A stretch of DNA of 52,191 nt, from contig CALZKW010000001.1 in assembly GCA_945788095.1 (NCBI GenBank), forward strand, positions 1 through 52,191, given 5' to 3'. Under the pieces are notes generated by a model. That model did no database searches, was not told the DNA's origin, and saw only the letters and a program-made list of their open reading frames with translations. Positions 5,987 through 37,777 of the stretch are shown piece by piece (within the stretch, counting starts at the first letter, position 1; each line of letters starts with the position of its first letter). A program made the position numbers and the translations under genes. The stretch is from an uncultured Prevotellaceae bacterium. GTDB taxonomy: Bacteria; Bacteroidota; Bacteroidia; Bacteroidales; Bacteroidaceae.

Positions 5987-6754
5987 ATGACTACACTCGA
6001 GATTTGTTGCGGCTCTCTGCAGAGCGTCAGAGCCGCCCACGAAGGTGGCGCCCAGCGCGTGGAGCTCTGCAGCGGCCTGAGCGAAGGTGGTGTGACACCC
6101 AGTCTGGGACTCCTGGTGGAGGCCCAGGCTATCGGCCTGCCCGTGCATGTGCTGATACGTCCGCGTGGGGGCGACTTTGTGTATTCACCCAGCGAGGTGA
6201 GAGCGATGTATACCGACATCATCATAGCCCGTCTGTATGGTGCCTCGGGCGTGGTGATAGGTGCACTCACCACGGATGGGGACGTCGATATGGAGGTATG
6301 CGAACAGTTGGTGGCGGCGACCAAGGCGCCGCTGGAGGACAACACGGGACTGCTGCGCCCTGAGTGCTCCATCACCTTCCACCGCGCCTTCGACCTCTGT
6401 CGCGATCCTCACAAGGCGCTGGCCGATATTAAGCAACTGGGCATCAACAGAGTGCTCACCTCGGGCCAGGCACAGACGGCGGAGAAGGGCATCGCCCTGC
6501 TGCGTCAACTGGTGGAGGAGGCCGGAGAGGACCTGAGCATCATGCCGGGCTGTGGCGTCAGCATCGACAATGTGCGCCGCATCATCGACGAGACAGGGGC
6601 CCACGAGATACACGCCTCGCTGCGCTCCCCCATCGAGAGCAACATGCTCTACCACAAGGAGGGTGTCAGCATGGGCACCCCCGGCAGCAACGAGTATGTG
6701 TGGCCCGAGACAGATCCGGAACTGGTGGAGAGAGCGGTTCGTCTTTTTATTTAA
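5987..6754 (+). CDS. cutC: Copper homeostasis protein CutC family
   Basis: 255 aa. N-terminus LEICCGSLQSVRAAHEGGAQRVELCSGLSEGGVTPS, plus FHRAFD and RVLTSG motifs typical of CutC. Confidence 0.9.
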   Translation: MTTLEICCGSLQSVRAAHEGGAQRVELCSGLSEGGVTPSLGLLVEAQAIGLPVHVLIRPRGGDFVYSPSEVRAMYTDIIIARLYGASGVVIGALTTDGDVDMEVCEQLVAATKAPLEDNTGLLRPECSITFHRAFDLCRDPHKALADIKQLGINRVLTSGQAQTAEKGIALLRQLVEEAGEDLSIMPGCGVSIDNVRRIIDETGAHEIHASLRSPIESNMLYHKEGVSMGTPGSNEYVWPETDPELVERAVRLFI

Positions 6755-10096: not shown

Positions 10097-10195
10097 GTGG
10101 GGGGCAAAGTGTTAGTGAATAGTGAATAATACTTAATACCTTTAATACTGGTAATGTAGAGGAGAAAGCACATAGCACGCCCCAACAAGCCATTC

Positions 10196-10590
10196 ACGGC
10201 CATTTTCAGCACGGAAACATACTGTTGTAGGCCTACAACGGCCATTTTCAGCACGGAAAAATGCTGTTGTAGGCCTACGACGACGATTTTCTGCACGAAA
10301 AATGCTGTTGTAGGCCTACAACGACGATTTTCTGCACGGAAACATATTGTTGTAGGCCTACAATGACGATTTTCAGTGGAGAAACATATCGTCGTAGGCC
10401 TACAACGACGATTTTCAGTGGAGAAACATATCGTCGTAGGCCTACAACGACGATTTTCGGTGGAGAAACATATCGTCGTAGGCCTACAACGACGATTTTC
10501 GGTGGAGAAACATATCGTCGTAGGCCTACAACGACGATTTTCGGTGGAGAAACATATCGTCGTAGGCCTACAACGGACATTTTCGGTATT
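10196..10590. repeat. 42-bp tandem array, about 9.5 units, each unit carrying an AGGCCT-centred palindrome
   Basis: AGGCCT occurs at 10229, 10271, 10312, 10354, 10396, 10438, 10480, 10522 and 10564. Unit sequence is GATTTTCGGTGGAGAAACATATCGTCGTAGGCCTACAACGAC. Units 1, 3 and 4 carry the perfect 16-bp palindrome GTTGTAGGCCTACAAC; unit 2 has one mismatch. Confidence 0.95.
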
Positions 10591-13242: not shown

Positions 13243-13305
13243 TGGGTTTATTGGGCTTATTGGGCTAATTGGACTAATTGGACTAATTGGGCTAATCCGG
13301 CTAAC
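13243..13305 (-). repeat. 9-bp tandem array (sense TAGNCCAAT), 7 units, filling the tex-transglutaminase spacer
   Basis: Plus strand reads TGGGTTTAT TGGGCTTAT TGGGCTAAT TGGACTAAT TGGACTAAT TGGGCTAAT CCGGCTAAC. Confidence 0.95.
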
Positions 13306-13315
13306 TGCTCCTCTC

Positions 13316-19090: not shown

Positions 19091-19111
19091 GAAAATAGTC
19101 CCGGTCAGCAG

Positions 19112-19133
19112 CCGTTGTCTGTTGTCCGTTGTC
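19112..19133 (-). repeat. Heptamer repeat (sense GACAACG GACAACA GACAACG) just after the glnN stop
   Basis: Plus strand reads CCGTTGT CTGTTGT CCGTTGT C. Confidence 0.85.
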
Positions 19134-21337: not shown

Positions 21338-21357
21338 CTATATCTATTATATTGTTG

Positions 21358-21393
21358 TTGGGCTAATTGGACCAATTGGATTAATTGGACTAA
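21358..21393 (-). repeat. 9-bp tandem array (sense TAGNCCAAT), 4 units, in the aguB-glnN spacer
   Basis: Plus strand reads TTGGGCTAA TTGGACCAA TTGGATTAA TTGGACTAA. The last unit overlaps the aguB stop codon. Confidence 0.9.
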
Positions 21394-22265
21394 TCAATGA
21401 ATCGCTTGGTGAGACCACCGAACTCCTCGATGCGACGGTCGCGCAGGAAGGGCCACCAGCGGCGCACATTCTCGCTGCGCTGCATGTCGACCTCGACCAC
21501 CACGTTCTCCTCCTTGTCCTTGGAGGCGCGGTAGAGCACCTCGCCCTGGGGACCGGCTACAAACGAACTGCCCCAGAACTGTATGCCGTTGGTCTGACCG
21601 CTGGGGTCGGGCTCGTGGCCTACCCTGTTGACAGCAATGACGGGCAGACCATTGGCCACAGCATGGCCGCGCTGCACGGTGGTCCATGCCTCGCGCTGGC
21701 GCTCCTGCTCCTCGGGGGTGTCGCTGCTCTCATAGCCGATGGCGGTGGGATAGATGAGCAGTTCGGCTCCCTGCAGGGCCATGAGGCGCGCTCCCTCGGG
21801 ATACCACTGGTCCCAGCACACCTGCACGCCGAGACGGCCCAGAGAGGTCTGGATGGGGTGGAAACCGAGATCGCCGGGGGTGAAATAGAACTTCTCGTAG
21901 TAGGCGGGATCGTCGGGGATGTGCATCTTGCGATACTTGCCGGCTATGCTGCCATCAGTGTCGAAGACCACGGCGGTGTTGTGGTAGAGGCCTGCTGCAC
22001 GACGCTCGAAGAGGGAGGTAACGAGCACTATGCCATACATGCGGGCTATCGTGCTGTAGAAGTCGGTGCTGGGACCGGGGATGGGCTCAGCCAGATTGCA
22101 GAGGTCGACATTCTCTGTCTGACAGAAGTACAGACTGTTGTGGAGCTCCTGCAGCACCACGAGCTGGGCGCCCTGCTTCACCACGTCGGCTATGTTGTTG
22201 GCCAGTTTCTCTTTGTTTTGCTGCACATCAGCCGTGCAGCTCTGCTGGATGATTCCTATTTTCAT
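21390..22265 (-). CDS. aguB: N-carbamoylputrescine amidase (carbon-nitrogen hydrolase family)
   Basis: 291 aa. LVVLQELH, CWDQWYPE and the adjacency to agmatine deiminase support the call. Confidence 0.88.
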   Translation of the reverse strand: MKIGIIQQSCTADVQQNKEKLANNIADVVKQGAQLVVLQELHNSLYFCQTENVDLCNLAEPIPGPSTDFYSTIARMYGIVLVTSLFERRAAGLYHNTAVVFDTDGSIAGKYRKMHIPDDPAYYEKFYFTPGDLGFHPIQTSLGRLGVQVCWDQWYPEGARLMALQGAELLIYPTAIGYESSDTPEEQERQREAWTTVQRGHAVANGLPVIAVNRVGHEPDPSGQTNGIQFWGSSFVAGPQGEVLYRASKDKEENVVVEVDMQRSENVRRWWPFLRDRRIEEFGGLTKRFID

Positions 22266-22275
22266 TGTTTATTGA

Positions 22276-22311
22276 TTGGACTAATTGGACTAATAAGGCT
22301 AATTGCCCCCC
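22276..22311 (-). repeat. 9-bp tandem array (sense TAGNCCAAT), 3-4 units, in the aguA-aguB spacer
   Basis: Plus strand reads TTGGACTAA TTGGACTAA TAAGGCTAA TTGCCCCCC. Confidence 0.85.
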
Positions 22312-23442
22312 CTACTTCACCACCCCGAGGGGGAACTGCATGGTGCAGCAGTGGAGCGATCCGTGCTGTATGATGAGGGCCTGGCAGTCGATGCCTACTA
22401 TCTCGTGGTGGGGGAAGGCCAGTTGCAGTTGCTTGCGGGCCTGTGCGTCGAGCTCGGGCTGACCATAGGTGGGCATGAGCACGGCTTCGTTGACAATGAG
22501 GAAGTTGGCATAGGTGGCGGGCAGTCGCTCGCCGTCCTCGTCGTAGGCTGGAGCTGCCATGGGCAGTGGCACGAGGCGATAGGGTTCGCCCTCTGCGGTG
22601 CGGAATGTCTTGAGCTGCTCCTCCATCAGGTGGAGTTCCTCGTAGTGCTCGTCCTCGGTGTCGAGACACTGCACATAGGCGATGGTGTCGCAGGGACAGA
22701 GGCGCGCCAGGGTGTCGACGTGGCTGTCGGTGTCGTCGCCGGCCAGATAGCCGTGGTCGAGCCAGAGGATGCGCTGGGCATGCAGGCTGCGCTTGAGGCG
22801 CTCCTCGATGTCGGCCTGCGTGAGGGGCTGGTTGCGGTGGGGAGCGAGCAGACACTGACTGGTGGTGAGGATGGTGCCGCAGCCGTCGCTCTCGATGCTG
22901 CCGCCCTCGAGCACAAAGTCGAGGTGGTCCTCATAGGTGCCGCGGAGCACCTGCTGCTCCATCATGCGGCGGCAGATCTGGTTGTCGAGCGCGGCTTCAA
23001 ACTTCTCGCCCCATCCATTGAAGCAGAAGTCGAGGAGGGTGGGTCCCTGCTCGGTGAGGAGGGTGATGAAACCATGGTCGCGCGCCCAGGTGTCATTGGT
23101 AGGTGCCTCGTGGAGACTGATATTGGCCACCACGGCCGAGGGCAGTTTCTCGTCGAGGAGAGCCTTGACCTCGCTGACGTGGGGGGTGATGATAATGAGG
23201 CGCTCGCGGCGCGCTATCTCGTAGGCCATGCGCAGGTAGCACCCGGTGACCTGTGGCAGTATGGGGGCCCAGTCGGTGTCGGCATGGGGCCAAGTGAGTT
23301 GCACACCGCTCTGGGGATACCACTCGGCAGGCAGATGGGTGGTGCGCACCTCGGTGGCCTCCGGACCTGCCACACGGTCGAAGCGCAGCGTGCGGGTCAG
23401 GTCTTCTATCGTTGTCGTTGGTTTACTGAATCGTATTGCCAT
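22312..23442 (-). CDS. aguA: Agmatine deiminase (PAD_porph family)
   Basis: 376 aa. Contains LPAEWYPQ, NDTWARDHG, GGSIESDG, DTDSHVD and the C-terminal GSLHCCTMQ. Confidence 0.88.
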   Translation of the reverse strand: MAIRFSKPTTTIEDLTRTLRFDRVAGPEATEVRTTHLPAEWYPQSGVQLTWPHADTDWAPILPQVTGCYLRMAYEIARRERLIIITPHVSEVKALLDEKLPSAVVANISLHEAPTNDTWARDHGFITLLTEQGPTLLDFCFNGWGEKFEAALDNQICRRMMEQQVLRGTYEDHLDFVLEGGSIESDGCGTILTTSQCLLAPHRNQPLTQADIEERLKRSLHAQRILWLDHGYLAGDDTDSHVDTLARLCPCDTIAYVQCLDTEDEHYEELHLMEEQLKTFRTAEGEPYRLVPLPMAAPAYDEDGERLPATYANFLIVNEAVLMPTYGQPELDAQARKQLQLAFPHHEIVGIDCQALIIQHGSLHCCTMQFPLGVVK

Positions 23443-23493
23443 TTTTTAGGTTGTAGGTTATAGGTGGGAGGTTGATTGAGGTTATGAGGTCCT

Positions 23494-23538
23494 ATTGGGC
23501 TTATTAGGCTAATTGGGCTAATTGGGCTAATCCCTAAA
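23494..23538 (-). repeat. 9-bp tandem array (sense TAGNCCAAT), about 5 units, in the GH125-aguA spacer
   Basis: Plus strand reads ATTGGGCTT ATTAGGCTA ATTGGGCTA ATTGGGCTA ATCCCTAAA. It is flanked on both sides by CCTAAAA-type heptamers. Confidence 0.9.
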
Positions 23539-23572
23539 ATCCCAAAAGCGAAGCGCCCTAAAACCTAAAACC

Positions 23573-25000
23573 TCACCTACCATACACATCGATCACCAGT
23601 TCGCCAAAGAGGGTGTTGGCCCATGCGAACCATGAGCGGGTGAACTTGGTGGGGTTGTCCTTGTTGAAACTCTCGTGCATGAAGCCTGTGCCGGCATCGG
23701 TGGCCAGGAGTTGGGCGATGCAAGCCTCCTGTTCGCTGCGGTTGGTGGTGGTGAGGGCCTTCATGATGATGCTCATGGGCCACACGTTGTCGTAGCCGGT
23801 GTGGGGACCGCCGATGCCCTCGCCAGCCTTGCCGCTGAAGAAGTAGGGATTCTGGTGGCTCCATATCATGCGGCGGGTGTTCTGGTAGATGGGGTCGGAG
23901 ATGGACATCTCGGTGAGATAGGGCAGAGAGAGGAGCGAGGGGGCGTTGGCATCGTCCATGAGGAGATGCGAACCGAAACCGTCGACCTCGAAGGCGTAGA
24001 CCTTGCCATACTGGGGCGTGTCGACCACGGCGTAGCGCCTCAGGGCTGCCTCCACCTCATTGGCCAGAGCGGTGCACTCCGCAGAGAGTGCGTCGTTGTG
24101 GTTCACCTTGTCGAGCACCGTGGCGGCCTTGCGCAGGATGCTGACGGCAAAGAAATTGCTGGGCACGAGGAAGGGGAACACGCAGCTGTCGTCGGAGGGA
24201 CGGAAGAAACTGGCAATGAGCCCCACGGGATTGGCGGGATGGCCGTAGCCGTAGTTGCTCACCGTGTCGTGGAGGGCACTGGTGGTGCGGGCAAAGGTGT
24301 AGGGTGTGCGGTTGCCACGCTTGCGCTGCTGGTCGCGGAAGACCTGTAGCATCTTCTCCACAGCCTCTATCCACTTGGCGTCGAAGATGGTGTCGTCGCC
24401 CGTCAGCAACCAGTATTCGTAGGCCAGACGCACGGGATAGCAGAGCGAGTCGATCTCGTACTTGCGCTCATGGAGCTCAGGCTTCATGTCGGTGTAGTCG
24501 GACTGCCACTCGCTGCCCGTGGGGCCGAAGTTGAAGGCATTGGCATAGGGGTCGATGCAGATGCTCTTGATCTGGCGGCGGATGACGCCGCGTATCATGC
24601 GCTGCAGGTCCTTGTCGTCCTTCATATAGCGCAGATAGGGCCACACTTGGGCGGCACTGTCGCGCAACCACATGGCATGGATGTCGCCCGTGATGACAAA
24701 GGTGTCGTCGTCGCCGTCCTCCGTCTTGCTGTAGTGCACCGTGGTGTCGAGGGTATTGGGAAAACAGTTCTGAAAAGTCCACCAGAGTTGTGGATTCTTG
24801 CGGAGCAGTATGTCGCGCATCGACTCTATCTTGCGGTCGATGGCCTTGCTGCGGAAGAGGCGCTTCTCGGGCGCCGGGCGCTGCGAGGTGAAGGTATCGG
24901 CCTCCACACGGGCCAACTCGGGGATGGTGGGCATCTCCGCCGCCCCACTCAGCGTAGGGAGCGCAAAGAGAGACGCCATGAGGATATGGATGGATTTCAT
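23573..25000 (-). CDS. GH125 exo-alpha-1,6-mannosidase (DUF1237 family)
   Basis: 475 aa with a signal peptide. TGDIHAMWLRDSAAQVWPYLRY is a GH125 hallmark. Confidence 0.85.
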   Translation of the reverse strand: MKSIHILMASLFALPTLSGAAEMPTIPELARVEADTFTSQRPAPEKRLFRSKAIDRKIESMRDILLRKNPQLWWTFQNCFPNTLDTTVHYSKTEDGDDDTFVITGDIHAMWLRDSAAQVWPYLRYMKDDKDLQRMIRGVIRRQIKSICIDPYANAFNFGPTGSEWQSDYTDMKPELHERKYEIDSLCYPVRLAYEYWLLTGDDTIFDAKWIEAVEKMLQVFRDQQRKRGNRTPYTFARTTSALHDTVSNYGYGHPANPVGLIASFFRPSDDSCVFPFLVPSNFFAVSILRKAATVLDKVNHNDALSAECTALANEVEAALRRYAVVDTPQYGKVYAFEVDGFGSHLLMDDANAPSLLSLPYLTEMSISDPIYQNTRRMIWSHQNPYFFSGKAGEGIGGPHTGYDNVWPMSIIMKALTTTNRSEQEACIAQLLATDAGTGFMHESFNKDNPTKFTRSWFAWANTLFGELVIDVYGR

Positions 25001-25081
25001 ATTGGGCTAATTGGGCTAATAAGACTAATTGGGCCTATTGGGCTAATAAGACTAATTGGGCTAATCGGGCCTATCATGCTA
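25001..25081 (-). repeat. 9-bp tandem array (sense TAGCCCAAT), 9 units with 27-bp higher-order periodicity, filling the GH92-GH125 spacer
   Basis: Plus strand reads ATTGGGCTA ATTGGGCTA ATAAGACTA / ATTGGGCCT ATTGGGCTA ATAAGACTA / ATTGGGCTA ATCGGGCCT ATCATGCTA. Confidence 0.95.
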
Positions 25082-25088
25082 CCTCCCT

Positions 25089-27254
25089 CTATGGGCGGTG
25101 CTTCTTGTCGGTGCCCCACTTGCTGGGCTTGCTGGTCATATAGAATTCCAGTTTGCCGCCTTGGATGATGTCCTTGTAGTCGATGTAGCTGTAGGGATAG
25201 TTCTTGCCGTTGAGCTTGACGTGAGAGACGTAGATGTTCTGCTCGCTGTTGTTGTGCGACACGATGGTGAACGTCTTGCCGTCGCCCACGTTGAGGTCGG
25301 CGCGCTCCACCACGGGAGAGCCTAAGATGTAGCGGCCGCCGCAGGGAGCCACCTGATAGAGACCCATCGACGAGAGGATGTACCAGGCCGACATCTGACC
25401 TACGTCCTCGTTGCCGCAGAGACCCGCAGGCTGGTCGGTGTAGAGTTCGCGCATCACCTGGCGCACCTTCTCGGCGGTCTTCCAGGGCTGGCCCACATAG
25501 TTGTAGAGATAGAGCACGTGGTGGCTGGGCTCATTGCCGTGGGCATACTGTCCGATCAGACCCGAGATGTCGGGATTGGCATCAGCGTTGAGGGTGCTCT
25601 CGGCCAGGAAGAGGGAGTCGAGACGCGCGATGAAGGCCTCCTCGGAGGGGAAGCAACCTACGAGTCCGTGGACGTCGTGGGGCACGAGCCAGGTGTATTG
25701 CCAGGGGTTGCCTTCGGTGTAGTCGGACGTCTGATGACAAGGATTGAATCCCTCGCGAGGGCGGAACTGGCCATCGCTGTCGAGGGCACGCATGCACTGC
25801 AGCTGGGGATCGAAGAGGCGCTTGTAGCCCATGCTGCGGTTGTGGAAGTAGGCGCTGTCCTCCACCATGCCGAGCATGCCGGCCACCTCGGCAGCGCTCC
25901 AGTCTGCGATGTAATACTCGAGGGTCTTGGCCACAGGCTCCCAGTCGCCATGATTGTAGGGGATATAACCCAGTTGTTTCATCCAGCCCATCGAGCGGTT
26001 GTCCTTCATCAGACTCGCCTTCATGGCCTCGAAGGCTTCCTTACGGTCGAAGCCTTCCACGCCCTTCAGGCACATATCGGCCAGCACGGGCACAGCGGGA
26101 GAGCCCACCATGCAATAGGTCTCGTTGCTGTGGAGGTGCCACACGGGCAGTTCGCCCTGCTCACGATAGATGTGGAGCATCGTTTGGGCATAGTCGGTCA
26201 GTTTGTCGCGCATCACGAGGGTCTGCAGGGGATGCAGGGCGCGGTAGGTATCCCAGAGCGACCAGGTGGTGTAGTTCTGAAACGTTACTGCACGGCGCAC
26301 ACGTCCGTCCGACCCCATATAGTCGCCGTTGACATCGTTCCACACCTGGGGCGCCACGAGCATGTGATACATCGAGGTGTAAAAGATGCGGCGGTCGCGC
26401 TCGTTGGCAAAGGTGGCCTGGATGCGCCCCAACTCCTTGTTCCACTTCTCGTCGGCAGCGCGATAGACGGCAGCAAAGTCCCATGTGGGCATCTCAGCCA
26501 GGAGGTTCTGCATGGCATTGGTCTCGCTCACGGGCGACACAGCCACCTTGACCATCACGGGGTCGTAGGGCCCCACCTCGAAGGTGGCCTGTCCGTAGGG
26601 TGCGTCGAGCGAAGCGCTGAGCCAGTGGTGAATGGGCTGCGAGAACTGTGCCACGAAATACACCTCCTGATGGCCTGCCCACCCGCGGCTGATGCGATAG
26701 CCGGCTATGGTGTGGTCGTCGAGCTGATACATACGGGCCTGCTTGAGGCGATCGCCCACACCATTGTCGAGGTCGATGATGATGCGCGCATTGTTGCTGC
26801 CGCGCTGAAAGGTGTATTTATGGAGGGCAACGCGCTCGGTGGCGGTCATCTCGCACACGATATTGCTCCCGCCGAGCACCACCTTGTAGTAGCCCGGATG
26901 TGCCACCTCAGTCTCCTTGCGCATGGGAGCAGCCAGACCCTGTCGCGAGAGTTCCACCTCACCCATGGCTGGCATAAGGGCGATATCACCCAGGTCGCTA
27001 CAACCGGTACCGCTGAGGTGGGTCTGTGCAAATCCCACTATCGAGTCGCCCGACTGATGATAGCCCGAGCACCAGTCCCAACCGGTCTCGATCTGCGTCG
27101 GACCGACATTGACCATACCCTGGGGCACGTTGGCACCCACAAAGACATGTCCGTGGTCGCCAGTGCCAATCATAGGATCCACATACTCTGTGAGGCGCTG
27201 ACCAAACGAAGCAGCCGCCAACAACAGGGAAGAAAGAATAGCAATTGTTCTCAT
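25089..27254 (-). CDS. GH92 alpha-mannosidase
   Basis: Start taken at MRTIAILSSLLLAAASFGQ (cat at 27252-27254). YVDPMIGTGDHGHVFVGANVPQGMVNVGPT is a GH92 hallmark. Confidence 0.9.
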   Translation of the reverse strand: MRTIAILSSLLLAAASFGQRLTEYVDPMIGTGDHGHVFVGANVPQGMVNVGPTQIETGWDWCSGYHQSGDSIVGFAQTHLSGTGCSDLGDIALMPAMGEVELSRQGLAAPMRKETEVAHPGYYKVVLGGSNIVCEMTATERVALHKYTFQRGSNNARIIIDLDNGVGDRLKQARMYQLDDHTIAGYRISRGWAGHQEVYFVAQFSQPIHHWLSASLDAPYGQATFEVGPYDPVMVKVAVSPVSETNAMQNLLAEMPTWDFAAVYRAADEKWNKELGRIQATFANERDRRIFYTSMYHMLVAPQVWNDVNGDYMGSDGRVRRAVTFQNYTTWSLWDTYRALHPLQTLVMRDKLTDYAQTMLHIYREQGELPVWHLHSNETYCMVGSPAVPVLADMCLKGVEGFDRKEAFEAMKASLMKDNRSMGWMKQLGYIPYNHGDWEPVAKTLEYYIADWSAAEVAGMLGMVEDSAYFHNRSMGYKRLFDPQLQCMRALDSDGQFRPREGFNPCHQTSDYTEGNPWQYTWLVPHDVHGLVGCFPSEEAFIARLDSLFLAESTLNADANPDISGLIGQYAHGNEPSHHVLYLYNYVGQPWKTAEKVRQVMRELYTDQPAGLCGNEDVGQMSAWYILSSMGLYQVAPCGGRYILGSPVVERADLNVGDGKTFTIVSHNNSEQNIYVSHVKLNGKNYPYSYIDYKDIIQGGKLEFYMTSKPSKWGTDKKHRP

Positions 27255-27275
27255 ACGCGCGCAATTTATTGTATG

Positions 27276-27283
27276 CAAAGATA
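27276..27283 (-). promoter_or_regulatory. Candidate -7 box (TATCTTTG) for the GH92 gene
   Basis: The reverse complement of caaagata matches TAnnTTTG, 21 nt upstream of the ATG at 27254. Confidence 0.5.
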
Positions 27284-27520
27284 GCACTTTTCGCCGACAT
27301 ACGCAAGCAAAAAGGCATTTTTATACCCCCTTACAACACTCCTCTCCCACCCCGCATTTGCGCGCCAACTGACCAACCACCCGCCGGCCAACTGCGCAGC
27401 ATTCTTTGGAAAGCTACCGCGAAGCTACAAGAGAAGTTACAGAGAATCCAAAGAAAACAGAAATCAAATTACGGATTTCACAAAAACAAAACGCGCCCAA
27501 GAGGCTTCGTATACACTATG

Positions 27521-27577
27521 TTTTCGTCCGTCCGTCCAAAACGCTATATATAGGCGTTTTGGACGGACGGACGAAAA
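27521..27577. repeat. Near-perfect 57-bp palindrome H1 containing (GTCC)3
   Basis: TTTTCGTCCGTCCGTCCAAAACGC - tatatatag - GCGTTTTGGACGGACGGACGAAAA. Confidence 0.9.
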
Positions 27578-27650
27578 GGGCATACGAAAAATCGCGTCGC
27601 ACACCTTGAACTTCATAAAAGAGATGGGTAACAGCACAAAAAAAAATATG

Positions 27651-27779
27651 ACTGTCCGGGGAAATCAAGACCCTGTAAGAGTCGCTATAGAGTAGCGTAG
27701 GGCGTCAACCCTACGTATGGCACTACCCCCTATCCTTTGGCCCTGTAAGGGCCTCCTAACTAATACGTCATGAAAATAT
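27651..27779 (+). repeat. Structured dispersed element R of about 130 nt, copy 1 (candidate ncRNA or MITE)
   Basis: Closely similar to 33382-33512, with only scattered substitutions and small indels. Hairpins: GACCC-tgtaa-GAGTC (27669-27683), CGTAGGG-cgtcaa-CCCTACG (27696-27715), GGCCC-tgtaa-GGGCC (27739-27753). Confidence 0.8.
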
Positions 27780-27978: not shown

Positions 27979-28028
27979 CGTCCATCCATCCAAAACGCTC
28001 AATGCAGGCGTTTTGGATGGATGGATGG
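27979..28028. repeat. Palindrome H2, related to H1, with (ATCC)n arms
   Basis: CGTCCATCCATCCAAAACGC - tcaatgcag - GCGTTTTGGATGGATGGATGG. It shares the CCAAAACGC-N9-GCGTTTTGG core with H1. Confidence 0.9.
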
Positions 28029-28076: not shown

Positions 28077-29549
28077 CTAACACTTTTGTGTCTTGTTTCT
28101 GTTAATTTTGAAACCAAAAGCAGCCTGCAGCACGGTCATGATGGGACTGAGGTAACAAAAGAAACAGAAGGGGGCATACATCAGCGTGCTCACACCGAGC
28201 ACCGAACTCTGCGTCATGCCACAGGTGTTCCAGGGCACAAGGACGGAGGTGACCGTGGCACTGTCCTCGCAGGTGCGACTCAGCAGACGGGGCTCGTAGC
28301 CATGGCGCTCATAGGAGTCCTTGTACATGCTGGCCGTGAGAATGATGCTGAGATACTGGTCGCTGGTGGTGATATTGAGGAAGATACCCGTCAGAGCCGT
28401 GCTGCCCACAAGTGTCACACAGTTGTAGGCCAGGCGCAGGATGGCAGTCATGATGCTCTCGAGCATGCGCGTGGCCGTCATCGCACCGCCGAAGACCATG
28501 GCGCAGATGATGAGCCAGATGGTGCTGAGCATGCCGCCCATGCCTCGCGTGGCTACAAGGGCATTGAGCTCGTCCACACCCGTGTCGACACTCGTGCTGT
28601 CGTAGAGCGCCATCATGACGCCTCTGAACAAGCCCTCCAGACCGCCACAACCGGCTATCTGATAGAGTTGGCCACGCTGCACCAACATCGCTGCGACACA
28701 GGCCAGAATGACGGCCATGAAGAGGATGAGCATCGAGGGCAACTTGCGCATGATCATGACACCCGTAAGCACAGGCACCACAAAGAGCCAGGGGGTGATG
28801 ACGAAGGTGGAGGCCAGCACCTGGCGCACATGGTCGGCACCACCTGTGCCAGCCTCGTCGTGCATCAGTCCCACAACGAGGAAGATGGCAGTCGTAATAA
28901 TAAAGGTAGGCACGGTGGTGTACATCATGTAGCGGATGTGCTCGAAGAGAGGGGTGCCGACCGTGCTGCTGGCCATCACCGTGGTGTCGCTCAGGGGCGA
29001 TATCTTGTCGCCGAAGTATGCACCGCTGATGATGGCGCCTGCCACAAGACCCTGACTGAAGCCCAAGGCGTCGCCGATGCCCATCAGAGCCACTCCGATG
29101 GTGGCAATGGTGGTCCACGAACTGCCCGTCATCACGCTCACGATGGCGCAGATGAGACAGGTAGAGATGAGAAACCACTGGGGATGGAGTATCTGCAGAC
29201 CGTAGTAGATCATCGTAGGCACCACGCCGCTGACCATCCACACGCCACCGATGGCACCGATGAGCAGCAGGATGATGATGCTCTGCGACACGTCGGTAAT
29301 CTTCTCCGTCACGGCCTTCTCGAAGTCGTCGAAGGTGACGTAGCCCGTGAGCATACCAATGCCCACACAGAAGGCAGAGGCCAGGATCAAGGCCACCTGA
29401 GAGGCACCGCTCAGCGAGTCGTCGCCAAAGACGGACACCACAAACGCAATGAGTGCCACCAGCAAAGCCAGTGGCACACATGATAACCAGAGAGGAGGCA
29501 ATCCCTCCTTGCGTATCTTATTCGTCATATAACTTTCGCTATTGCTCAA
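28077..29549 (-). CDS. nhaC: Na+/H+ antiporter NhaC family
   Basis: 490 aa, polytopic. The overall sequence is NhaC-like (ILASAFCVGIGMLTG...GAIISGAYFGDKISPLSDTT). The start could instead be the internal MTNKIRKEG. Confidence 0.88.
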   Translation of the reverse strand: MSNSESYMTNKIRKEGLPPLWLSCVPLALLVALIAFVVSVFGDDSLSGASQVALILASAFCVGIGMLTGYVTFDDFEKAVTEKITDVSQSIIILLLIGAIGGVWMVSGVVPTMIYYGLQILHPQWFLISTCLICAIVSVMTGSSWTTIATIGVALMGIGDALGFSQGLVAGAIISGAYFGDKISPLSDTTVMASSTVGTPLFEHIRYMMYTTVPTFIITTAIFLVVGLMHDEAGTGGADHVRQVLASTFVITPWLFVVPVLTGVMIMRKLPSMLILFMAVILACVAAMLVQRGQLYQIAGCGGLEGLFRGVMMALYDSTSVDTGVDELNALVATRGMGGMLSTIWLIICAMVFGGAMTATRMLESIMTAILRLAYNCVTLVGSTALTGIFLNITTSDQYLSIILTASMYKDSYERHGYEPRLLSRTCEDSATVTSVLVPWNTCGMTQSSVLGVSTLMYAPFCFFCYLSPIMTVLQAAFGFKINRNKTQKC

Positions 29550-29600
29550 GTTTTTAGGTTTTAGGGCGCTTCGCCTTTGAGGTTTTAGGTTGGTCTGCTC

Positions 29601-29672: not shown

Positions 29673-31193
29673 TTAGCTTACCTTGTTCAGCTTCTTGATG
29701 ATAGAGAAGATGAAGAGGGCTGCTACCACACAGATGGCTGCCAGGACTCCCCATACGAGGGTCAGCTCCTGGCCCCACAGATAACCGGGAATCTGTACGA
29801 GGAAGTTGCCAAGTGCAGTAGAAACAAACCATGCACCCATCATCATACCCTTGTACTTGGGAGGAGCCACCTTGCTCACAAATGAGATACCGATGGGGCT
29901 GAGCAGCAACTCAGCGAAGGTAAGCACGAGATAGGTGCTAACCAAGAGGTTGGGGGTGACATTGGCCATGTGGTCGTTCACACCATTGGTATAGGTGGGA
30001 GTGGGCAGACCTATCGAACCGCCGATCATCAGCACGTAGGCAGCAGCAGCCACGAGCATACCGAGACCTATCTTGACAGGTGCCTTGGGCTCCTTGCCCT
30101 TCTTGCCCAACCAGCCGAAGAGAGCGATGCTGACGGGGGTAAGCATCACCACGAAGCAGGCATTGAACTGCTGGAAGATGGGAGCGCTAACCGATACCGA
30201 ATCGGGCAGCTGGGTGTAGTTCCAGTAGAGGTAACCAGCAGCCAGGGCTACAACGCCCAGACCGCCCAGCTTTGACTTCGCTGTAGCACCCTGGAATACA
30301 GAGAAACCACCAAACACGATAAAGATGGCTGCCACGAGGTTGGTCACGTCGAACATCATTGACTGCACACCCGATGAAGAGGTGGCTGTGTAGTCGCGGG
30401 CGAAGAAGGTCAGCGTGAGACCATTCTGATGGAAGGCCATCCAGAAGAATACAACCACAGCCATTACCAGACAGAGGCATACGATGCGCTCGCGGGTCTC
30501 AGCGGGTGAGAGTTCGTCGGCAACAGCCTCACTGCCAGCGTCCTTGCTGGTCTTCTTGGCGGTAGTGATGACCTGCTTGAAGGTGGGCTTGCCCAGATAG
30601 TAAATAAGGATAGAGAGGATGAGCGAACCGCAAGCCACAGCAAAGGCATAGTGGTAAGAGTCAGCCTCGCTCACACCGAGAGAGGTCTGTGCCCACTCCA
30701 TGATCTTGATGGCAGCGGTGGGTGCAAACATGGCACCTACGTTGATGGCCATATAGAAGAGCGAGAAACCAGCGTCGCGCTTTGCAGCATACTGAGCGTC
30801 GTTGTAGAGGTCGCCCACCATGACCTGGAGGTTACCCTTGAAGAGGCCCGTACCCATACTCACGAGCACCAATGCAGCAGCCATAGCGATGATGGCCAGC
30901 GAATTGGCACCGAGGGGGAGCGACAGGAGCACATAGCCCGCAAACATCACAAAGATACCAATGGTGACCATCTTGCTATATCCAAACTTGTCGGCCAGCA
31001 TACCACCAAAGAGGGGGAGGAAGTAGACAAGCATCAGAAAACTTGAGAAGATGGTACTGGTCAGTTTCTCATCAAACTGGAAGTTTGCCTGCAGAAACAA
31101 GGTAAACACGGCCAACATAGTGTAGTAACCAAAGCGCTCACCGGTGTTGGCAAGAGCAAGCGCCCAAAGGCCTTTAGGTTGTCCTTCAAACAT
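29673..31193 (-). CDS. POT/PTR2 proton-dependent oligopeptide transporter
   Basis: Start taken at MFEGQPKGLWALALANTGERFGYYTMLAVFTLFL (cat at 31191-31193). ERFGYY and GGMLADKFGY are PTR2 signatures. Confidence 0.88.
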   Translation of the reverse strand: MFEGQPKGLWALALANTGERFGYYTMLAVFTLFLQANFQFDEKLTSTIFSSFLMLVYFLPLFGGMLADKFGYSKMVTIGIFVMFAGYVLLSLPLGANSLAIIAMAAALVLVSMGTGLFKGNLQVMVGDLYNDAQYAAKRDAGFSLFYMAINVGAMFAPTAAIKIMEWAQTSLGVSEADSYHYAFAVACGSLILSILIYYLGKPTFKQVITTAKKTSKDAGSEAVADELSPAETRERIVCLCLVMAVVVFFWMAFHQNGLTLTFFARDYTATSSSGVQSMMFDVTNLVAAIFIVFGGFSVFQGATAKSKLGGLGVVALAAGYLYWNYTQLPDSVSVSAPIFQQFNACFVVMLTPVSIALFGWLGKKGKEPKAPVKIGLGMLVAAAAYVLMIGGSIGLPTPTYTNGVNDHMANVTPNLLVSTYLVLTFAELLLSPIGISFVSKVAPPKYKGMMMGAWFVSTALGNFLVQIPGYLWGQELTLVWGVLAAICVVAALFIFSIIKKLNKVS

Positions 31194-31236
31194 AATAAAT
31201 CTGAGTTTAAATTGATTTAGATTATTTTTTCGCGGG

Positions 31237-31244
31237 CAAAGATA
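31237..31244 (-). promoter_or_regulatory. Candidate -7 box (TATCTTTG) for the POT transporter gene
   Basis: The reverse complement of caaagata, 43 nt upstream of the ATG at 31193. Confidence 0.45.
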
Positions 31245-31286
31245 GCAAAAATAACGCATTTGCGGGCACTTCGATTTAACTTTTTA

Positions 31287-31338: not shown

Positions 31339-33078
31339 ATGAAACACATCAACCTACGTCCCCGCCTTCTCGACTGCATCAAGGGATACAATCGAGATAC
31401 ATTCATGAAGGACCTCATGGCAGGTCTTATCGTGGGTATTGTGGCGCTGCCTCTGGCCATCGCATTCGGTATCGCCAGCGGCGTAACTCCCGAGAAAGGT
31501 ATCATCACGGCTATCGTGGCAGGTTTCATCATCTCACTCCTTGGCGGCACCAAGGTGCAGATCGGAGGTCCTACGGGTGCCTTCATCGTCATCATCTATG
31601 GCATCGTCAACAATCCTGAGTACGGCCTCCAGGGTCTGCTCATCGCCACCATGCTGGCTGGCGTCATCCTCATCGCCCTCGGAGCCTTCAAGCTCGGCAC
31701 CGTCATCAAGTTTATCCCCTATCCCATCATCATCGGTTTCACGGCCGGTATCGCCGTCACCATCTTCACCACACAGATGGGCGACGTGCTGGGCCTGACT
31801 CAGCAGGTGGCCGACAAGAGCGGCGAGATGGTCACCGTGCCCCTCAAGACTCCCGGCGACTTCGTGGGCAAATGGATATGCTATGCCAAGAATATCAGCA
31901 CATTCAACATCTGGAACTTCCTCGTGGCCATCGGCAGTCTGCTGGTCATCATCTTCTCGCCCAAGGCCGTGAGCAAGATTCCTGTGCTCAACAAGATACC
32001 CGGTTCGCTCTACGGCATCGTGCTCGGCACCGTGGCTGTACTCATCCTCAGCCAGTGTGGCATCAACAGCGTCGACACCATAGGCGACCGCTTCGAGATA
32101 CAGAGCAAACTGCCCGAGATGGTCGTACCCGCCATCGACTTTGCCATGATACAGAAGCTGATGCCCGTGGCCTTCACCATCGCCATCCTCGGCGCCATCG
32201 AGAGCCTGCTCAGCGCCACCGTGGCTGACGGTGTGATCGGCGACAAGCACGACAGCAACATGGAACTCGTGGCTCAGGGGGTGGCCAACCTCGCCACTCC
32301 TCTCTTCGGAGGTATCCCCGCCACCGGTGCCATTGCCCGCACCATGACCAACATCAACAATGGTGGCAAGACCCCCGTGGCTGGTATCATCCACGCCATC
32401 GTGCTGCTCGTCATCCTGCTCGTGCTCATGCCCCTGGCCAACTTCATCCCCATGGCCTCGCTGGCTGCCGTACTGGTGGTGGTGAGCTACAACATGAGCG
32501 GCTGGCGCTCTGTCAAGGGCCTGCTCTCCAACCCCAAGAGCGACGTCATCGTGCTCTTCGTCACCTTCTTCCTCACCGTGGTCTTCGACCTCACCATCGC
32601 CATCGAGGTGGGTCTGGTGCTGGCATGTGCCCTCTTCATCAAGCGTATCATGGAGACCACCGAGATCTCTGTCATCAGCGATGAGATCAACCCCAGCAAC
32701 GAGGCTGGCATGAAGAGTCTCAACCAGGAGAACCTCACCATCCCCGAGGGTTGCACCGTATATGAGATCAATGGTCCCTACTTCTTCGGCATTGCCAACA
32801 AGTTTGACGAACTGCAGACCAACATCGGTACGAAGCGCCCCCAGGTGCGCATCATCCGCATGCGCCGCGTGCCCTTCATCGACTCTACGGGTATCCACAA
32901 CCTGCAGAACCTCATCCAGGCCAGCCACGAGCAGGGCATACACATCATCCTCTCGGGTGTCAACCCCAAGGTGCACGCCCAGCTGGAGAAGGCTCAGTTC
33001 TATAGCCTCATGAACGAGGATCACATCTGCCCCCACATCGACGTAGCCCTCGAAAAGGCTCGCGAGATACTGTCTTGA
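31339..33078 (+). CDS. SulP family anion permease with C-terminal STAS domain
   Basis: 579 aa. SulP N-terminal motif (DLMAGLIVGIVALPLAIAFGIASGV). STAS-like C-terminus (VRIIRMRRVPFIDSTGIHNL). Confidence 0.9.
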   Translation: MKHINLRPRLLDCIKGYNRDTFMKDLMAGLIVGIVALPLAIAFGIASGVTPEKGIITAIVAGFIISLLGGTKVQIGGPTGAFIVIIYGIVNNPEYGLQGLLIATMLAGVILIALGAFKLGTVIKFIPYPIIIGFTAGIAVTIFTTQMGDVLGLTQQVADKSGEMVTVPLKTPGDFVGKWICYAKNISTFNIWNFLVAIGSLLVIIFSPKAVSKIPVLNKIPGSLYGIVLGTVAVLILSQCGINSVDTIGDRFEIQSKLPEMVVPAIDFAMIQKLMPVAFTIAILGAIESLLSATVADGVIGDKHDSNMELVAQGVANLATPLFGGIPATGAIARTMTNINNGGKTPVAGIIHAIVLLVILLVLMPLANFIPMASLAAVLVVVSYNMSGWRSVKGLLSNPKSDVIVLFVTFFLTVVFDLTIAIEVGLVLACALFIKRIMETTEISVISDEINPSNEAGMKSLNQENLTIPEGCTVYEINGPYFFGIANKFDELQTNIGTKRPQVRIIRMRRVPFIDSTGIHNLQNLIQASHEQGIHIILSGVNPKVHAQLEKAQFYSLMNEDHICPHIDVALEKAREILS

Positions 33079-33088
33079 AGTGCTCTCT

Positions 33089-33145
33089 GACAACAGACAA
33101 CGGACAACGGACTACGGCTGCGGACTGTTGACCTCCTGACTCACA
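33089..33145 (+). repeat. Heptamer repeat GACAACA GACAACG GACAACG GACTACG and degenerate follow-on units, directly after the SulP stop
   Basis: Period 7, read directly from the sequence. Confidence 0.85.
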
Positions 33146-33213: not shown

Positions 33214-33381
33214 TGGGGGCGGCGAAGCAAAGTTCACATAGCACGCCCCGCGCTCGGCATCCCGAAGGCAAAATTGGGCTATGAACTGCTGCCCCTTCGG
33301 GGCGTATTAGAGTCTATTTTTCTTTATTGATGATTTTTCTACCCCCCTACCTTTTTAGTTATCCCCCCACCTTATATTATT

Positions 33382-33512
33382 ACTGTCCGGGGAAATCAAG
33401 ACCCAGTAAGGGTCGCTATAGATTAGCGTAGGGCGTCAACCCTACGTATGGCATTGCCCCCCCTATCCTTTGGCCCTGTAAGGGCCTCCTGACTAATACG
33501 TTATGAAAATAT
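33382..33512 (+). repeat. Structured dispersed element R, copy 2
   Basis: Same orientation as copy 1. Hairpin 1 is perfect here (GACCC-agtaa-GGGTC). Confidence 0.8.
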
Positions 33513-33539: not shown

Positions 33540-36500
33540 TCACCTCAGCACGCGTTTCTTGCCCTGGCTCACCACGATGCCGTGTGCAGTTTGCTCGGAA
33601 ACGGGCTTGCCTGAGAGGTCGTAGAGGGGGGATACAGCACCCTCTGCCACCACGGTTGAGATAGCCGTTGGTGTGTAAAAATCTCCGATGAGGAAATAAT
33701 CCTTCACGCGGGCTGCTGCAGAGGTGACCTTGAGGTAAGCCTCACCGGCAGGACAGACGTCGGAGTCGACGCGGAAGAAACCTGTGCCAAGGCCCTCACG
33801 CGTCTCAAGACGGTAGTAGCTGACGGCATCGGATGTTACAAGACTAACAGGAACGCAGTCTCCCAAGAGTTTGTTCATGCTCAAACTAACGGGAGATGTT
33901 ACACTGGGTTTGAGACGTACCACACTGCCTGGAGCACCATGCACAAGCACAGAAGCACCAGCGGGGAGCGTACCATTCACTCGCTTCATTTTCAGCGTAT
34001 CTACGTCCGTGTCGAAATTGCTAACGTAGTAGATATCCGCATCAGAGTCCTTCAGGCTAACGGGGTATGGCACCGAGAGGGCAAGCCATCCAGACTCGGG
34101 TATGTTACGTTCGATTGTTAGTTTTGTAACAGGGTCGAAGCTCAAATGAGGTGGCTGATTATAGGCACAGTTCTGATTGACCACCTGCGCGCGGTAGTTC
34201 AGGTCGTCCATCAGGTGGGGCAAGGCATAAGGCGACTCAAAACTGGTGAAGTTGATGTAGAGATGATTGTTCGCATTATTCCAAGTGACGAACTCCTCGC
34301 GCCAGTCTCCTAAGAGGTCACCCTGGACGCAGGGATTATTCTTCGTATAGTTGTTGAGCGAACCCCAGAGATAGTTGCCGCCATTGAACTGGTAGCGGTC
34401 GAACGACTTGCTCGAGGGGTTCCAGTGAGCAATGATGCTCTTGTCGAAAAACTCGTCGTAGAGATCGCCGTCCCAGTAGACTCGGGCATTGACACTGGCA
34501 CCACTCGAACCGAGGGCCCACGACGAGGCATTGACGCTCTGGTCGGCACAGTTGTACATCTGGGCACGGGCACTGCTGAGGAACTGCCAGTCGTCGCGGC
34601 TGCTATCGAAATGGGCCGCCAGACCACGGCCTGTGTCGCCGCTCTCCGTCTGACGCATCAGTATCTCACCGGTGCAGGCATCGCGGATATCGATGCCATA
34701 GGGACTCTTCTCGTGACACATCAGCACCTCCAGACCCTCGTGGTCGGGCAGCATGTCGCCCAGATGGAGGGCATCGCCATGCCCCAGATTGGTGCGGTAG
34801 AGACAGGTGCCGTCATGATCGAGACAGGCCGAACCATAGACAATCTCCTGACGGCCATCACCATCCACATCACCCACTGACACCCAGTGAGCACCCTCGC
34901 CATAGACGGTCTTGGTGAGCGTCTTCGAACGGCCGTCGCCATAGTCCAGACGACCATTCGAGGCCGAATAGGCACGGTGCACCCAACGCTCACGAAGTTG
35001 CTCGCCATCAAAGTCGTAGGCACCGATGAAGGCACCGTTGTAGTAGCCACGGGCAAAAATGGGACTGGGATTGCTGTCCGGACCGTCGAGATAAGCCAGG
35101 GCAGCCAAATAGCGCTCACTGCGGTTCTGCTTGCTGTCACCCCAGTAGGCCTCACCCGTCTTGTAGTCCGTGTGGTAGGGAATGGTGCTGATTTCTGCTC
35201 CGTTGAGACCATCAAAGACAGTGATGTACTCTCCGCCATGATCCTGCTTGCCACGACTGCTCAGGAGATTCTCCGTGGGTGAGTCGTTGCCCAGGAGCAC
35301 ATAGTTGCCCTGGCCGTCGATGGTGCCAGGAGCCGTCTTGCACATAAATTCGCCATAGCCATCACCATCGAGGTCCCAGGCGATGAACTGCACGGTGTGG
35401 GCACTGTTAAAGATATTGGGACCGAGGTCGATGCGCCACAACTGTGTGCCGTCGAGCTTGTAGCAGTCGAAGATGGGATTGCTGGTCGTACCGTTCGAGG
35501 CAGCGTCCTTCTCATTAGATGGCGCCCACTTGAGGATGATTTCGTACTCACCATCACCATCCATATCGCAGAATGAAGCATCGTTGGGCGTGTAGGTGGC
35601 ACCATTGCGCAGGTCGACAGGCGTCTGGGTGGGTATCTCGAGACTCTGGTTTTGCCATGTCTTGCCACTCACCACCGACTCCAGCAACTGATCGTTGGCA
35701 TCATACACCTCGAGGCGATAATATGAGGTGGTGCTGCCCGAGGCATCGCGATAGTTGGTCTTGGTGGTGATATAGTTGCCATTGTTGACCCTGGTGGTCT
35801 GCGCCGCAGCACTGTTGCCACGCCACAGTTTGTACTTCACCGCACCTTCGTCCGAGGGACGACGGCGCCACGAGATGAGATTGCCCGTGCCGCCACTCTG
35901 TGCCAGACTGACAGATACCAAACCACGCCCCAGGGGTGTGGCCTCAGGCTTCTGAGGACGACCACCTATGGCAAAGCGTACTGAGAAAGAGAATACCTTG
36001 TTGCCCTGCTGAAGCACGGTCACAAGAGCCTGCTTGTTGGCATAGGTCACCGTGGCTTCATAACCGGGGGCAGCCTCGACCGTAAAATCAGTGGGATCGG
36101 CACTGAGGCGGGTGGCATAAGAAGCAGAGCCACCATTCTGCACCCCGCTGACGAGGTCAGTCAGATTGATGGCATTGCCCTCAGCATCGCGACAACCGAG
36201 ATGCGTCACGTAGTGGTCGGCAGCAAAGAGGGGCTCGTCGACCATACCCTCGACCGTGACATTGCGAAAGGCAATGGCCTTGGGCGAGGAGGTGTCCGTA
36301 CCATTTATATTATAGATGTAGAGGATAACAATGAAGGCCTTGCCCTCGACGAGCATATCATTGATGACGTACTCGTGGTGGCTATAACCATTGGGATTGC
36401 CCTGGTCCACCTTGTTGCGCAGCGGAGCCACCGCCGAAGCCAGTGTCACCTCGGTGCCTCCGCTGGGCTTGATGACCACATCGATGTTGCCGCCATCGGT

Positions 36501-36872
36501 GCCGCATTTGGCTGCATCAAAGGAGAGACGCGTGGGCTTGAAGGTGTGGCCCGACTGAGGAGTGACGCCAAAACTGATACAATGACCAGCAACCTTGCCC
36601 GTCTGGCGTGTATCAACATAAAACATTGAAAACGAGGGAGTATATACTACCGGTTCATAGTCCTCTGTCGAATTTGATACACTCATTTCTTCCACTTTTG
36701 ATACATTACTGCCGCTCAGGTATGAGGAAGTGACGAGCGATTTGGCCTCTCCGTCAGCTGTAGAGGCCGCGAGGTTGGCGCTTTGGGCAAGCGTCCATGT
36801 CACAGAGGCTCTCTGCGCCGATGCAGCAAGCGCAAGAATACCGAATACGAGGCACAAGAATGTCTTTCTCAT
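33540..36872 (-). CDS. PL11 rhamnogalacturonan lyase-like beta-propeller protein with T9SS CTD
   Basis: 1110 aa with signal peptide MRKTFLCLVFGILALAASAQ. YesW/YesX-like segment (CDMDGDGEYEIILKWAPSN...AWDLDGDGYGEF...GDVDGDGRQEIVYG). C-terminal sorting domain (PLYDLSGKPV...). Confidence 0.85.
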   Translation of the reverse strand: MRKTFLCLVFGILALAASAQRASVTWTLAQSANLAASTADGEAKSLVTSSYLSGSNVSKVEEMSVSNSTEDYEPVVYTPSFSMFYVDTRQTGKVAGHCISFGVTPQSGHTFKPTRLSFDAAKCGTDGGNIDVVIKPSGGTEVTLASAVAPLRNKVDQGNPNGYSHHEYVINDMLVEGKAFIVILYIYNINGTDTSSPKAIAFRNVTVEGMVDEPLFAADHYVTHLGCRDAEGNAINLTDLVSGVQNGGSASYATRLSADPTDFTVEAAPGYEATVTYANKQALVTVLQQGNKVFSFSVRFAIGGRPQKPEATPLGRGLVSVSLAQSGGTGNLISWRRRPSDEGAVKYKLWRGNSAAAQTTRVNNGNYITTKTNYRDASGSTTSYYRLEVYDANDQLLESVVSGKTWQNQSLEIPTQTPVDLRNGATYTPNDASFCDMDGDGEYEIILKWAPSNEKDAASNGTTSNPIFDCYKLDGTQLWRIDLGPNIFNSAHTVQFIAWDLDGDGYGEFMCKTAPGTIDGQGNYVLLGNDSPTENLLSSRGKQDHGGEYITVFDGLNGAEISTIPYHTDYKTGEAYWGDSKQNRSERYLAALAYLDGPDSNPSPIFARGYYNGAFIGAYDFDGEQLRERWVHRAYSASNGRLDYGDGRSKTLTKTVYGEGAHWVSVGDVDGDGRQEIVYGSACLDHDGTCLYRTNLGHGDALHLGDMLPDHEGLEVLMCHEKSPYGIDIRDACTGEILMRQTESGDTGRGLAAHFDSSRDDWQFLSSARAQMYNCADQSVNASSWALGSSGASVNARVYWDGDLYDEFFDKSIIAHWNPSSKSFDRYQFNGGNYLWGSLNNYTKNNPCVQGDLLGDWREEFVTWNNANNHLYINFTSFESPYALPHLMDDLNYRAQVVNQNCAYNQPPHLSFDPVTKLTIERNIPESGWLALSVPYPVSLKDSDADIYYVSNFDTDVDTLKMKRVNGTLPAGASVLVHGAPGSVVRLKPSVTSPVSLSMNKLLGDCVPVSLVTSDAVSYYRLETREGLGTGFFRVDSDVCPAGEAYLKVTSAAARVKDYFLIGDFYTPTAISTVVAEGAVSPLYDLSGKPVSEQTAHGIVVSQGKKRVLR

Positions 36873-37724: not shown

Positions 37725-37777
37725 GTCCGTTGTCTGTTGTCTTCCAACCGTTGTCCGTAGTCCGTTGTCTGTTGTCT
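37725..37777 (-). repeat. Heptamer repeat (sense GACAACR/GACTACG), directly after the CE12 stop
   Basis: Sense strand reads TAG-tA GACAACA GACAACG GACTACG GACAACG GTTGGAA GACAACA GACAACG GACATTG. Confidence 0.85.

Follow-up and report, generated by a model that had tools for sequence, protein, structure and literature searches.

A hairpin-forming repeat of the Acido-Lenti-1 family in a Bacteroidales genome as a likely end module of an IS200-like Y1 transposase system

The window analysed here, which is the whole stretch of 52,191 nt, is 99.98% identical to a contig from a pig-gut metagenome. According to a gene map based on Pfam, its central part encodes GH125, GH92, NhaC, a POT transporter, SulP, and a rhamnogalacturonan lyase (Table 1). 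Named relatives of the NhaC protein are only found in MAGs of Bacteroidaceae and Bacteroidales, with about 67% identity. Comparison within the window reveals two direct copies of a short repeat, R, in which 125 of 135 aligned columns are identical; the copies differ by 8 substitutions and one 2-nt indel, and no further full copy is present within the 52,191 nt. R has a length of about 130-135 nt, and the part common to all strains corresponds to positions 27651-27774 of copy 1. Copy 1 is located about 300 nt after the NhaC gene and about 360 nt before the GH92 gene, while copy 2 begins 28 nt past the stop codon of the lyase gene, between convergent genes. Both copies thus lie 3' of minus-strand genes and on the same strand as the respective upstream gene. 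A sequence-only reading of this DNA had placed R at 27651-27779 and 33382-33512 in the same orientation, and both ranges fall inside the borders given here; the four hairpins that it described are located where it put them in both copies. It had also noted the absence of a transposase nearby, and a tblastn search of the 52-kb window detected no Y1 transposase gene.

Table 1. Genes, copies of R and their parts in the central region of the window
Feature	Positions	Strand	Remarks
GH125	23573-25000	-	
GH92	25089-27287	-	
R copy 1	27647-27779	-	half unit, 25-nt spacer, full Acido-Lenti-1 unit, 20-nt tail (5' to 3')
Full unit, copy 1	27668-27715	-	46-nt type: hairpin A, linker CUACUCUAUAGCG, hairpin B, CU
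Hairpin 1 (hairpin B), copy 1	27669-27683		GACCC..GRGTC
Hairpin 2, copy 1	27684-27696		GCTA..TAGC
Hairpin 3 (hairpin A), copy 1	27696-27715		CGTAGGG..CCCTACG
Hairpin 4 (half-unit hairpin), copy 1	27739-27753	-	GGCCC..GGGCC; GGCCCUUACAGGGCC
62-nt segment	27775-27836	-	abuts the 5' end of R copy 1 (minus strand); in the window strain, absent from L077 and L078
NhaC	28077-29528	-	
POT transporter	29673-31259	-	
SulP	31339-33078	+	
Third, diverged unit	33261-33304	+	94 nt from the unit of copy 2, tail to tail
R copy 2	33378-33512	-	architecture as in copy 1
Full unit, copy 2	33399-33446	-	
Hairpin 1 (hairpin B), copy 2	33400-33414		GACCC..GRGTC
Hairpin 2, copy 2	33415-33427		GCTA..TAGC
Hairpin 3 (hairpin A), copy 2	33427-33446		CGTAGGG..CCCTACG
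Hairpin 4 (half-unit hairpin), copy 2	33472-33486	-	GGCCC..GGGCC
Rhamnogalacturonan lyase	33540-36872	-	

Other repeats are found in the intergenic regions of the window. A long near-perfect palindrome (CGTCCGTCCGTCCAAAACGC...GCGTTTTGGACGGACGGACG) occurs at 27512-27585 and 27979-28025; the two occurrences are 83% identical, lie 454 nt apart and bracket R copy 1. Weak Rfam matches to mir-4520 and other eukaryotic matches at 27512-27586 were discarded as artefacts of this palindrome. Tandem repeats of 9 nt (ATTGGGCTA and variants) fill short intergenic gaps at 5933-5993, 13223-13328, 21339-21408, 22275-22318, 23467-23554, and 24983-25089, one of them constituting the whole gap between GH92 and GH125. 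The 16-nt word TTCACATAGCACGCCC stands ahead of three features (4219-4427, 10152-10590, and 33218-33304), namely two tandem arrays, one of 23 nt (4244-4427) and one of 42 nt whose units bear palindromes (10172-10590), and the diverged unit beside R copy 2. Low-complexity words (GACAACGGACAACGGAC and CCTAAAACCTAAAACC) are present in both orientations between unrelated genes at 19104-19133, 33089-33125, and 37745-37776, and also at 23533-23573 and 29549-29589. Palindromes of the type GACCCGGGTC with a 22-nt period are located at the right end of the window (51990-52090).

R itself consists of one and a half units. On the minus strand of copy 1, the half-unit hairpin is near-identical to hairpin B, has the same orientation and is located 70 nt 5' of it (start to start). 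In copy 2, the corresponding hairpins GGCCCUUACAGGGCC and GACCCUUACUGGGUC are likewise alike and in direct orientation, with 72 nt from start to start on the minus strand. Two stem positions of R deviate from Watson-Crick pairing; read on the minus strand they are U·G, read on the plus strand C·A. The stem mismatch that the sequence-only reading had described for copy 1 therefore holds for the plus strand, but is a U·G pair on the minus strand. The words ACGTAT/ATACGT and GGGG/C-run, for which long-range pairing had been considered, are present in R and invariant, and the spacer is not conserved in relatives. The folding energy of R is modestly below that of shuffled sequences, with z about -2.4 on each strand; as both strands are only modestly better than shuffles, folding energy alone says little. 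A template/variable repeat pair of a diversity-generating retroelement was rejected, as the differences between the copies are not adenine-specific. A search of a protein database for the peptide that translation of R would give, which would appear as spurious ORFs over other R copies, gave no candidates. Blastn searches with R against plasmid and phage collections and pattern scans for the unit in viral contigs gave no match.

A search of Rfam, as the sequence-only reading had recommended, identified the family to which R belongs. The model RF01687 (Acido-Lenti-1) matches the minus strand of both copies, copy 2 with 40.9 bits and thus above the gathering score of 37 bits, copy 1 with 31.7 bits and thus below it. 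The match spans hairpins 3 and 1 with the intervening sequence, and these two hairpins are the two helices of the family. Both copies have an 8-bp hairpin, a 12-nt linker GCUA..UAU..CG, a 5-bp hairpin and a 3' CU, the linker and the CU being shared with the family. In contrast to the family, in which the loop of hairpin B has 3 nt, this loop has 5 nt in R, and R occurs in Bacteroidales and inside a larger 1.5-unit module, whereas Acido-Lenti-1 was described from Acidobacteria and Lentisphaerae. A covariance model of our own, built from 65 distinct units taken from pattern scans and the published alignment, detects three units in the window: those of copy 2 (43.3 bits, E=6.5e-10) and copy 1 (37.2 bits, E=2.5e-8), and a diverged unit next to copy 2 (25.0 bits, E=4.2e-5; 23.7 bits with the Rfam model). 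The latter is possibly the decayed inverted partner of the unit in copy 2.

In the paper of 2010, no function was given for Acido-Lenti-1, and only its proximity to group II introns was mentioned (Weinberg et al. 2010, PMC2864571). The published alignment comprises 89 sequences, many of which lie in Lentisphaera in clusters 69-200 nt apart (PMC2864571). Integron attC sites and a CRISPR array were considered for these clusters and dropped, as an R'/R'' core is lacking and the spacings are too short and variable. In the papers on Acido-Lenti-1 that were consulted, it is not tied to a transposase.

Further members of the family were collected by scanning for the unit pattern. Representative genomes, a collection that does not include the source species, yielded 3 loci (from Planctomycetota, Bacteroidales, and Verrucomicrobiota) and metagenomes yielded 57, and in these 60 loci our model finds 159 matches. 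In 65 units, 96% of the cells of hairpins 1 and 3 are paired and compensatory changes occur at 12 of 13 pairs. For hairpin 4, which was followed in 17 flanks of Y1 genes (see below), 92% of the cells are paired and compensatory changes affect 3 of 5 pairs. Hairpin 2 is only 57% paired without any compensatory change and was rejected as a conserved helix. At least two strong units within 600 nt are found in 43 of the 60 pattern-fetched loci, and neighbouring units are inverted in 42 of 53 cases, with preferred gaps of 8, 27, and about 110 nt. This arrangement in inverted doublets is a habit of REP, REPIN, and BIME elements and not of RNA genes. The trait is weaker for R itself, as only copy 2 has an inverted partner, the diverged unit. 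In loci of the metagenomes Ga0099364 and JGI24702J35022 (e.g., L013, L017, L025, and L062), a conserved 36-nt hairpin module (CTAGAGCGTATTAAAAATTGCTCTGGAATCCCCCTC) regularly stands in front of the doublet; the resulting composite element of about 150 nt is present on dozens of contigs of one metagenome organism. Genes for DUF1559/N_methyl proteins and sulfatases near units were dropped as candidate partners, being ordinary neighbours of the Planctomycetes type that are not adjacent to the units.

Clustering of the ORFs of all fetched loci revealed a small protein encoded directly beside units in three loci (L054, L044, and L006). These ORFs contain the Y1_Tnp domain (PF01797, E 5e-13 to 3e-26), directly adjoin units, and encode proteins with about 50% identity to one another. 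The two full-length proteins pass the IS200/IS605 model NF033573 (64 and 69 bits; cut-off 55) and fail the RayT model NF047646 (23.5 and 29.5 bits; cut-off 80), while the protein of L006 is a truncated fragment of 90 aa that stays below the IS200 cut-off of 55 with 34.5 bits. In L054, one unit on the plus strand (396-441) and one on the minus strand (1008-1053) border the gene (503-957). In L006, which belongs to a Bacteroidales MAG, the gene is immediately preceded by a 1.5-unit module. A profile of the three proteins retrieved more than 7900 homologues of about 150 aa, many of them encoded on contigs of 1-2 kb.

The association was also approached from the protein side with eight independent loci, which were chosen on contig size or on similarity to the L006 protein and not on the presence of units. 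Seven of them (L065, L067, L068, L070, L072, L073, and L076) have the same order: the gene, on the plus strand, is preceded by a full and then a half unit, both on the minus strand, and followed by a half and then a full unit, both on the plus strand, with the bracketing units within about 110 nt of the coding sequence on both sides. Most of the bracketing full units reach at least the gathering score of Rfam's own RF01687 model. Overall, gene and units are associated in 10 independent loci, 3 found by pattern and 7 by protein homology. From the gene outwards, the elements of each flank are a half unit (UAU..CG, hairpin, CU), a spacer of 22-27 nt, and a full unit. The flanks of one gene share linker and stem sequences and differ from those of other genes, and gene and flanks therefore change together. 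The minus strand of R has the layout of such a flank, with a spacer of 25 nt and an added tail of 20 nt, and R is therefore best regarded as a solo, REP/PATE-like copy of this end module. Flanks that closely resemble R were found at none of the fetched Y1 loci. In L073 (7398-8492; GCA_002315615.1, DCHK01000064.1), a Bacteroidales-type Y1 gene is embedded in a BIME-like cluster with no fewer than six units, of which four precede and two follow the gene. L066 is the one Y1 locus that lacks clear units; it encodes a protein of 263 aa, and three copies of another short repeat with weak model matches (10.6 bits) surround the gene at 1498-1535, 2420-2457, and 2548-2585.

Comparison of strains provides evidence of recent change in R. 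Strains L001-L003 and L077-L078 have copy 1 at the same site, and L077-L079 have copy 2 and have likewise kept the diverged unit. In strains with about 99.3% identity, an identical G-to-A substitution has altered the loop-closing pair of hairpin A from U·G to U-A in both copies, and copy 1 of the other strain matches copy 2 at several positions at which copy 1 of the window differs. Thus, both copies of R change in concert between strains. The 62-nt segment that is present only in the window strain of this comparison has an indel junction of exactly ATATT|TTCAT at the 5' border of copy 1, and both copies in the window are preceded by ATATT, an observation on two copies only. Target-site duplications and empty sites, which the sequence-only reading had suggested looking for, were found at neither copy: the flanks GGAGT.../...ATATAAGG and CCCTAA.../...TTTTTTTT contain no duplication, and R occupies both sites in every strain recovered. 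Beyond the species, a comparison for empty sites is not informative, as the nearest outside relatives of NhaC are only about 75% identical. Two independent assemblies of the same species, from other samples, break inside or at copy 1, which hints at additional copies. Y1 (HUH) transposases act on single-stranded hairpins, cut at a distance from them, and leave no target-site duplication. The assembly breaks, the concerted change, the 62-nt indel, the ATATT, and the absence of duplications fit this mechanism.

Short extragenic palindromes that form inverted doublets and clusters are also characteristic of the REP/REPIN-RAYT and TIRtron/TIRYT systems. A low-copy Y1 gene bracketed by inverted repeat copies, with gene and flanks co-varying, is a further trait shared with REP/REPIN-RAYT and TIRtrons. 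REP/REPIN elements and their RAYT transposases were reportedly described by Nunvar in 2010 and by Bertels and Rainey in 2011. Hairpin A of R begins with GTAG as REP elements do, whereas most members of the family begin with CTAG or CCAG. Further differences are the two-hairpin unit with its conserved single-stranded linker and the proteins, which fail the RayT model and pass the IS200 model. Di Nocera et al. (2013) reported 'TIRtrons', in Acidobacteria among other groups, in which a Y1 gene lies between long inverted repeats, some of them with a double palindrome, and the repeats are also dispersed as families (PMC3733652). The general kind of system is thus already known.

The two near-identical direct hairpins on one strand of R resemble the left-end and right-end hairpins of IS608, whose TnpA (PDB 2a6m/2vhg) is, among proteins of solved structure, the nearest in sequence to the Y1 proteins. 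The lack of target duplications, together with ATATT in front of both copies (n = 2), may be a further likeness to IS200/IS605 elements and PATEs. In contrast to these, the transposase genes studied here are without tnpB and are flanked by inverted and not by direct modules, and therefore differ in appearance from IS copies; no autonomous IS bearing these two ends in direct orientation was found, as all Y1 genes fetched have inverted flanks. The MITE of the type 'IS200/IS605-derived PATE' that had been proposed from sequence was thus close with respect to the Y1 protein of the IS200/IS605 type, the direct near-identical hairpins and the missing duplication, but not with respect to the inverted flanking modules and the lack of a cognate transposase in the window. 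The architecture of R is REP/RAYT-like rather than IS-like, and this earlier alternative of an IS200/IS605-type repeat was essentially right.

Among known transposases, the Y1 clade found here matches TnpA-Y1 subclass 1.2 of Quentin et al. (2018, PMC6006769), which was described as low-copy, without REPs and without the typical terminal hairpins of IS200. Both have a length of about 150 aa, a low copy number and the motifs DH[IV]H (HuH), WQ, and Y---Q--HH. In contrast to the subclass as described, the genes studied here have conserved flanking modules in 10 independent loci, and the first motif, in general [DN]H[IV]H, is NH[IV]H in the Bacteroidales branch.

Taken together, R is most likely a DNA repeat of the REP/REPIN/'TIRtron' kind, small, non-coding and able to form hairpins, and an end module of an IS200-like Y1 transposase system. 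This suggests that the Rfam family Acido-Lenti-1 is a repeat of this kind and not a small RNA gene. Furthermore, Acido-Lenti-1, an orphan since its description in 2010, may well be the missing cognate repeat of a large cross-phylum clade (subclass 1.2) of domesticated IS200-like Y1 transposases, forming a REP-RAYT-like system with a two-hairpin unit of which R would be a currently or recently active module. As the most likely mechanism, we infer that a Y1 transposase encoded elsewhere in the genome or in recent ancestors would recognise the hairpins on single-stranded DNA of one strand, which is the minus strand of the window. It would presumably cut at fixed distances outside the two copies of hairpin B, and the 130-nt module could in this way be moved or copied without target duplications. 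Several observations weigh against this explanation. The 52 kb contain no more than two full copies and one diverged unit; the window has no Y1 gene, and neither a Y1 locus with flanks close to R nor an empty site was found. The proteins are below the RayT cut-off, and Quentin et al. (2018) list no repeats for subclass 1.2. Finally, U·G on the minus strand at the two imperfect stem positions (two positions in two copies) and the location of both copies just 3' of minus-strand genes give R the look of an RNA element.

R may also be a transposase-derived repeat that was co-opted as an RNA-level 3' UTR element, in which hairpin B and the following UUGAUUU would end or stabilise the transcripts of NhaC and of the rhamnogalacturonan lyase. 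Such a role would add to the main explanation and is considered rather doubtful. It agrees with the position of both copies downstream of a gene on the same strand, especially with the short distance of copy 2 from the lyase stop codon, and with hairpin B and its U-rich tail being flagged as terminator-like in both copies. REP elements are known to end or stabilise transcripts in E. coli, and a recent report describes REPs as 3' UTR regulators (10.64898/2026.03.23.713779). However, the number of terminator-like sites in R obtained by consensus scanning is not above that in shuffled sequences, the short U-tract is interrupted, the copies number only two, and the roughly 300 nt between the NhaC stop codon and copy 1 contain other hairpins. 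Hairpin B with UUGAUUU could weakly terminate the transcripts of the upstream minus-strand genes or protect their 3' ends.

It is improbable that the minus strand of R encodes a small structured RNA or a processed portion of one, as Rfam's classification of Acido-Lenti-1 as a likely sRNA implies and as had also been considered in the sequence-only reading. The score of copy 2 above the gathering threshold, the strong covariation of both helices, the two stem positions of R that are U·G and not C·A on the minus strand, and the co-orientation of both copies with the upstream gene all speak for an RNA, and a preprint of 2026 reports RF01687-type matches downstream of protease genes in Tannerella. 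However, DNA hairpins would covary equally, and the family as a whole lacks the G·U tolerance of a selected RNA fold. A small RNA should tolerate G·U but not A·C on one strand, A·C on the model strand being equivalent to G·U on the opposite strand. Among 1560 stem cells of 120 distinct units, 95% are Watson-Crick pairs, and 16 G·U stand against 37 A·C on the model strand. G·U is therefore not enriched on either strand, and the structure looks like a DNA palindrome. In addition, units mostly occur as inverted doublets, so that half of them face the 'wrong' way, they bracket a transposase gene symmetrically, and R copy 2 lies between convergent genes. Two further features had been noted in the sequence-only reading. 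The reading of two loops as GNRA-type fails because the model strand is the minus strand, on which the loops read UUAC and UGAC. The word TATCCTTTG, which resembles a -7 promoter motif, would point into the 3' ends of minus-strand genes, and the number of promoter-like sites in R is not above that in shuffles either. A MITE derived from a DDE-type transposon with terminal inverted repeats and target-site duplications is very improbable, as R, although short, non-coding, dispersed and bordered by AT-rich sequence, has ends that are not inverted repeats of each other and flanks without duplication, and belongs to a family tied to a Y1 and not to a DDE transposase.

As an end module of a Y1 transposase system, R would be a mobile-element-type repeat located in two 3' intergenic regions of a polysaccharide-utilisation neighbourhood, and its annotation as an sRNA gene is not warranted. 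For the family, the link between Acido-Lenti-1 and the transposase clade concerns a clade whose substrate DNA was previously unreported. If this link holds, automated annotations of an 'Acido-Lenti-1 ncRNA', for example in virulence loci of Tannerella, should be read as repeat insertions, and the clade would gain a defined DNA substrate for biochemistry.
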